Shown in pieces: positions 5,266-5,284 of a stretch of 20,196 bases of DNA. Made by a program: the position numbers and the translations under genes. The notes under the pieces were generated by a model. That model had not been told where the DNA came from. It saw only the letters and a program-made list of their open reading frames with translations, and did no database searches. This DNA is from a virus (taxonomy: Duplodnaviria > Heunggongvirae > Uroviricota > Caudoviricetes), in the IMG/VR virus record IMGVR_UViG_2563366948_000002, positions 1 to 20,196 of that record. One strand, given 5' to 3'. The number at the start of each line of letters is the position of its first letter. Position 1 is the first letter of the stretch.

Positions 5266-5284
5266 GGCGTGGCGGGGATACGAG
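5266..5284 (+). other. cos-like site (putative cohesive-end sequence of a P2/186-type genome)
   Basis: GGCGTGGCGGGGATACGAG followed by CGCGCGCTCGC resembles the recalled P2 left cohesive end GGCGAGGCGGGGAAAGCAC followed by TGCGCGCTGAC. Orientation fits, with Q on the complementary strand to the right. Confidence 0.4.

Follow-up and report, generated by a model that had tools for sequence, protein, structure and literature searches.

Two modules of foreign genes lie on either side of a short GC-rich sequence in a prophage of Escherichia coli, which raises the question of whether this sequence is the cohesive-end (cos) site of the phage and whether cargo in such a position is out of the ordinary. 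The prophage is contained in IMG/VR virus record IMGVR_UViG_2563366948_000002, of which positions 1 to 20,196 were analysed (hereafter the window, to which all coordinates refer). A sequence-only reading of the window had likened a 19-mer at 5266-5284 and its flanks to the cohesive end of phage P2, in the right orientation relative to the portal gene Q. On the condition that this is cos, it had also assigned the DarTG genes to the right end and an unknown operon to the left end of the phage genome, and had regarded the interval between cos and Q as an unusual site for a moron, with a possible effect on packaging recognition.

From the listing of open reading frames (ORFs) and comparison with annotated genomes, the prophage in the window was identified as a P2-family element of the 186/Fels-2 type at the E. 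coli rcdA/ybjL site, with a gene order that corresponds to the prophage permutation of the P2 map (att-int-C...A...cos-Q-P...D-ogr-att). As a reference we used the apparently intact prophage of E. coli S40 (NZ_CP010235, ~3.255-3.290 Mb), which is 97.8-99.3% identical to the window and has the same cos and cargo. With high confidence, we interpret 5141-5291 as the cos packaging region of a Fels-2/186-type prophage of the P2 family (Peduoviridae), inserted between E. coli rcdA and ybjL and endowed with two standard cargo slots, the cos region probably being a relic in this copy.

Homology and position of the cos site

The cos junctions of P2, 186 and P4, assembled from records carrying annotated cohesive ends, were compared with the window. 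The 19-nt sequence GGCGTGGCGGGGATACGAG (5266-5284, top strand), equivalent to cosN, matches the P2 and P4 cohesive end GGCGAGGCGGGGAAAGCAC at 14/19 positions each and the 186 cohesive end GGCGTGGCGGGGAAAGCAT at 15/19, and it is the first 13 nt of the classical site (GGCGWGGCGGGGA), together with the flanks, that are conserved in the window. The flanks are in the same register as in the three phages, with TGCAT.AAAA...AAAG.GGGC preceding the 19-mer and NGCGCGC following it, and a more distal GTGCATG...TTGCAT block is also common to the window and the P2, 186 and P4 cos regions. The earlier perception of a resemblance to the P2 cohesive end was therefore correct.

The conserved P2/P4 block corresponds in the window to a 55-bp cos core at 5237-5291 (top strand), made up of 29 nt from TGCAT, the 19-mer and NGCGCGC, with limits that follow our own delimitation. 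Such a core is said to go back to Ziermann and Calendar in 1990. Passages in papers on other P2-like phages describe a 55-bp cos core as needed for packaging and give 19-nt 5'-protruding ends. When the cores of P2, 186 and P4 were slid along both strands of the whole window, the sole top match was at 5237 on the top strand (41/55, 43/55 and 42/55 identities, respectively, with z of 8-9), and the runner-up positions reached only 28-30/55. The alignment to the P2, P4 and 186 cos regions, on which the sequence-only reading had staked its proposal, is thus significant. Moreover, the conserved 13-mer is present exactly once in the window and all other sites resembling it, at two mismatches or fewer, fall within the tape-measure gene, indicating that there is no better cos candidate elsewhere in the window.

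Position and orientation are also those of P2, 186 and P4, phages with 19-nt 5' cohesive ends. As in P2 and 186, the 19-mer is on the top strand and Q lies downstream on the bottom strand; cos has the early/replication right end (the replication/tum-dinI side) on one side and Q on the other, with gene A deleted here and in its usual place in the 99-100% identical S40 prophage. Among closer relatives, Fels-2, RE-2010 and Cartapus share 95-97% identity with the window in the cos region, and a "putative cos site" at the very start of the phage Cartapus record matches 5234-5293 at 95% identity. Salmonella phage SEN8, a relative of Fels-2 and RE-2010 isolated as a free phage, has an annotated cos with exactly the 19-mer of the window (PMC5427200).

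Since only 14-15 of the 19 bases are shared with the classical phages, a chance GC-rich match could be imagined, the real packaging site being elsewhere or of the pac type. This explanation has next to no probability in view of the identity over the core, which is unique in the window, the exact conservation of the site in relatives with unrelated flanks (see below) and its correct position and orientation. Judged by its sequence, 5266-5284 is a genuine cos site of a P2/186/Fels-2-type prophage, and according to the annotation of the 186 record the top strand would be nicked at 5265/5266 and the bottom strand at 5284/5285, leaving 5' overhangs.

Several points weigh against this assignment. 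The 19-mer ends in the six bases TACGAG and not in AAGCAC/T as in P2, 186 and P4, so that the register of cleavage is only inferred; the cos sites of SEN8 and Cartapus were themselves annotated by homology; the limits of the 55-bp core are a reconstruction from the P2/P4 alignment; and the DNA ends of the element were placed from sequence alone. In addition, the close relatives described below were picked as best Q matches and are, for this reason, phylogenetically related rather than independent.

In the broad species-level set of relatives, the 19-mers keep GGCGTGGCGGGG and the 3' TACGAG across genera, with position 13 variable (A, G or C), and the 3' half is a separate one, AAAGCAC/T, in P2, P4, 186 and PSP3. 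The pattern points to two classes of cos sequence, which might restrict which helpers package which satellites. As regards the satellites themselves, a P4-like cos, flanked by psu-delta-sid, the alpha primase and P4 int, was considered and rejected: the flanks are of the P2/186 type (Q, P, a dinI remnant, CI and int), and no P4 genes are present in the ORF list or annotation of the window. A search of 4600-5600 against Rfam at a permissive threshold returned a chance microRNA match only.

A conserved island around the 19-mer

To define how far conservation extends, two sets of relatives were used. The close set consists of 80 IMG/VR loci with a Q protein at least 93% identical, 74 of which reach far enough for counts in the cos region. 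The broad set consists of 63 species-representative genomes with Q 60-95% identical, from Enterobacterales and a few more distant loci, and was searched with a relaxed cos motif that is less certain in the latter. The 13-mer occurs in exactly one copy between A and Q in all of the 74 close relatives, and the 19-mer is exact in 71 of them, the remaining three differing at the last base only.

A per-column conservation profile in the register of the 19-mer, calculated from 71 distinct rows (relatives plus the window), delimited a 151-bp conserved cos island at 5141-5291 (top strand). Conservation climbs from ~0.4 to 0.8-1.0 at 5141 and is down to ~0.4 again after 5291-5292, and just beyond both edges it is at the random level of 0.3-0.5. 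The island is strongly asymmetric, extending 125 bp from the 19-mer towards the right end (A side) but only 7 bp towards the left end (Q side), and its right edge in the window is also where the P2/P4 core, as delimited here, ends. It is conserved regardless of the flanking sequence, the upstream cargo and the orientation of the cargo, a pattern that would be expected from purifying selection on the site. It follows that the left-end side of cos may need no more than ~7 conserved bp, which could be useful for the design of P2/P4-type cosmids.

Six TGCAT motifs are clustered within 114 bp of the island (5142-5255), at 5142, 5155, 5165, 5230 (minus strand), 5237 and 5251, out of a total of 43 on both strands of the 20-kb window. 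Three of them are distal and three proximal to the 19-mer, all in highly conserved columns, and P2, 186 and P4 have TGCAT blocks at the aligned positions. It is reasonable to suppose that these motifs are candidate recognition elements for the small terminase subunit (gpM) and that the island is the terminase recognition region. In an intact relative, the terminase (large subunit P and small subunit M) would recognise the 5141-5291 island, probably via the TGCAT-containing sequences, nearly all of which are on the right-end side, and would introduce the two nicks 19 nt apart that generate the 5' cohesive ends.

A perfect 14-bp palindrome (CGAGCGCGCGCTCG, 5281-5294) spans the predicted bottom-strand nick; it was flagged as terminator-like and is conserved in the relatives only up to 5291. 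This GC palindrome, which is followed by a T-rich tail, could mainly be a transcription terminator of the upstream operon rather than belong to a packaging signal, as the consensus scan and the transcription of DarTG towards it would allow. However, the stem is just 5 bp, the 3' half past 5291 is not conserved, the island is kept whatever the upstream cargo and its orientation, and the conserved part is the P2/186/P4 cos core, which together make such a main role extremely improbable. A secondary role of the palindrome as terminator, in addition to the role of the island in packaging, is possible.

Cargo slots on both sides of cos

In the prophage map the cos site is internal, separating an exchangeable A-side slot, occupied here by DarTG and corresponding to the right end of the virion DNA, from a Q-side slot, occupied by the three-gene operon and corresponding to the left end. 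The map position of the modules relative to the A side and Q agrees with the ends to which they had been assigned. Against complete E. coli genomes, alignments on the DarTG side extend up to ~5290-5301 and those on the operon side from ~5142 onwards, the segment common to both classes being only ~5142-5292. Each module was found without the other, and both occur together in three genomes only, which supports the earlier view of them as two separate cargo modules.

The A-to-cos distance among the relatives varies from 791 bp (no cargo, 21/70 loci) up to 5.1 kb, and the cos-to-Q distance from 174 to 3,524 bp. The latter is at least 527 bp in 72/74 close relatives, only two of the 74 having a short leader like that of P2 and 186 (~175 bp), and is at least 600 bp in 52/63 species-representative genomes. 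Clustering of the DNA gave 47 Q-side and 24 A-side cargo types, in 63 combinations among 70 loci, and the operon of the window adjoins three other A-side cargos in relatives. Among relatives the A-side and Q-side modules assort independently, and the 151-bp cos island divides the A-Q interval into two slots at the nucleotide level. The distance from the cohesive end to the start of the cos-Q cargo is invariably 7 bp; on exchange, new cargo could replace everything up to this point and leave the conserved island untouched. With a profile anchored at the Q stop codon, the Q-side slot could not be cleanly delimited on the right, since Q varies in length at its C-terminus.

These data bear on the idea that an operon in the cos-Q leader is an atypical insertion that disturbs packaging recognition. 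The idea has some basis in P2 and 186, in which only 167-176 bp with a terminator separate cos from Q, compared with 2,447 bp and three genes in the window. Nevertheless, it is extremely unlikely, since cargo is found at this position in nearly all close relatives and most species representatives, as counted above, and the position has already been named a hotspot in the literature. A 1.7-kb cargo ORF occupies the cos-Q interval of both Fels-2 and RE-2010, on the strand that also carries the cargo in the window; that of RE-2010 encodes an AIPR protein. RE-2010 and phiCTX, both with cargo between cos and Q, are reported as free phages. The view of the cos-Q interval as an unusual moron site is therefore not supported. 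The proposed effect on packaging recognition fared no better: the conserved island ends at +7 in every relative, including the free phage SEN8, so that cargo starts outside it and recognition is probably unaffected.

Foreign defence genes on both sides of cos are normal and already described for these phages. In the literature, the designation of the cos-Q position as a hotspot dates from 1996-1999, and that of the entire A-Q interval as a defence hotspot from 2022, when Rousset et al. reported 1,650 arrangements of the gpA-gpQ interval "adjacent to the cos site" (PMC9122126). Their data comprise 18,150 A-Q loci, and their Table S5A includes arrangements with DarT, Macro and DinI as well as gene 3 of the operon (WP_016239485). 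In our relatives too this interval shows variable gene content, including the known defence system DarTG, between conserved flanks, as is characteristic of a hotspot. Later gene-based surveys also treat A-Q as a single hotspot (PMC13586616; bioRxiv 10.1101/2024.10.15.618418), whereas the analysis at the nucleotide level resolves two independently assorting slots around the cos island.

Similar arrangements are known in more distant phages. In phiCTX (cosL-ctx-Q) and in phiRSY1 and phiRSA1 (ORFs between cosL and gpQ), foreign genes likewise come directly after cosL, running away from cos and convergent with Q, although these phages differ from the window in host, cos sequence (21 nt in phiCTX) and cargo. 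Relative to the 19-mer, the hotspot of the P4 satellite (gop-beta-cII, P4 1-2540) is on the side of 5285-7731 of the window and not on that of P2 old/tin, and the Q-side slot is therefore its positional equivalent. Fels-2, RE-2010, SEN8 and Cartapus-type phages (Felsduovirus and relatives) differ from the window in the cargo genes on both sides, and the window prophage has lost A, M, N and further genes by deletion.

Q-side cargo also has a marked polarity. Counting ORFs of at least 100 amino acids in the cos-Q slot, 63/64 in the close set run away from cos and converge on Q, representing 37 cargo groups unrelated at the protein level and 50 protein families, and the same polarity was found for 89/96 ORFs in the broad set. 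Cargo on the A side shows no such polarity. A polarity rule for the Q side was not found stated in the P2-type hotspot literature that we examined. Candidate causes are insulation from the late P-Q transcript via a shared bidirectional terminator, or a need to keep transcripts from running into cos from the Q side.

Taken together, the published hotspot may be viewed as two slots pinned to the cos island as a fixed recombination anchor, in which the Q-side slot, equivalent to the P4 hotspot, is the more diverse and has a near-absolute polarity that reflects a packaging or transcription constraint not explicitly described before; we hold the odds on this combined proposal to be even. The cos site is in any case ordinary for its family, and the findings refine known hotspots and leave the current understanding unchanged. 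For annotation of this lineage, 5141-5291 can serve as a boundary marker between the two independently swapped slots, which makes it easier to set the limits of candidate defence systems, the three-gene operon among them, and locating cos fixes the genetic ends of this type of phage.

The prophage copy and its cargo genes

Outside the cos region, the window contains the integrase (1-1053/1209, minus strand) and the CI repressor (1449-2024, minus strand), both identified from the ORF list and annotated genomes, with a short early region between CI and DarT. On the other side of cos are the portal gene Q (7732-8769, minus strand; 7732-8766 when the RefSeq annotation of the S40 prophage is mapped to the window) and gene P for the large terminase subunit, an ATPase (8766-10532, minus strand; ORF list and S40 annotation). 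To the right of P come the tail genes FII, E, T, U and D, then ogr and ybjL.

Mapping by BLAST against the S40 prophage revealed two deletions, each leaving an in-frame fusion. The first removed 5,108 bp from cII to dinI, with loss of fil, dam, the replication endonuclease gene A and others; its junction at ~2603/2604 has a 2-bp microhomology and lies in a CII-DinI fusion ORF of 98 amino acids (2392-2688, plus strand; Pfam Phage_CP76 and DinI). The second removed 12,425 bp, from within the scaffold gene O to within the sheath gene, taking with it the genes for the capsid (N), the small terminase subunit/endonuclease (M), head completion, lysis, baseplate and tail fibres; its junction at 11110-11117 has a microhomology of ~8 bp and lies in a fusion ORF of GPO and tail sheath (10675-11367, plus strand; Pfam Phage_GPO and Phage_sheath_1C). 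Of a self-sufficient packaging module (cos, P, M, Q and capsid), P and Q remain and M and N are gone. With A, M, N and others deleted, cos is not usable by the machinery of the prophage itself; from its gene content, the prophage appears to be defective, and its cos, although intact-looking, is probably a relic.

An alternative is that the deleted prophage of ~17 kb is alive as a satellite that is excised and packaged by a co-resident helper of the Fels-2 type. Its cos, integrase, repressor and both cargo modules are intact, P and Q are kept, and both deletion junctions are in frame. Even so, a satellite of this kind is very unlikely: replication gene A is gone, helper-manipulation genes are absent, and the size is about half a P2-type headful. 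Furthermore, the doubly deleted form was present in one place in none of 5,426 complete E. coli genomes, and thus shows no sign of spread. A relic cos in a defective prophage is the reading that we retain.

The A-side cargo module (2689-5140, plus strand) contains the ADP-ribosyltransferase DarT (3156-3737, plus strand; PADLOC 2.2e-36) and the macrodomain protein DarG (3742-4713, plus strand; PADLOC 2.8e-80). Both matches are near full length and the genes are adjacent, as predicted for a DarTG toxin-antitoxin/defence system; the S40 prophage has a 100% identical, RefSeq-annotated sequence of this module, and elsewhere the module is accompanied by other Q-side cargos. A fragment of an IS5/IS1182-family transposase at ~4870-4977, between DarG and the cos island, is annotated as a pseudogene in S40 and may be a trace of the arrival of the DarTG module.

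The Q-side module (5292-7731, plus strand) consists of the three-gene operon, with gene 1 at 5444-6550 (RdgC-like fold), gene 2 at 6578-6997 and gene 3 at 6997-7662 (PD-(D/E)xK nuclease fold), all on the plus strand, followed by a terminator-like hairpin at 7702-7727 that is convergent with Q. The three proteins had no significant match in PADLOC, Pfam or NCBIfam and matched families of unknown function only in PHROGs, and a full-text literature search on their RefSeq protein accessions returned no paper. A promoter consensus scan found sites no more frequently than in shuffled sequence and is therefore uninformative on cargo expression. The three genes co-occur across Enterobacterales, and it is a reasonable inference that they constitute a putative DNA-sensing, nuclease-based anti-phage system. 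Both modules are low in GC (28-39%, and 28-36% for the A-side module) relative to the backbone (52-55%). In the virion, DarTG and the operon would be at opposite ends of the DNA, whereas in the lysogen they make up a single contiguous defence island.
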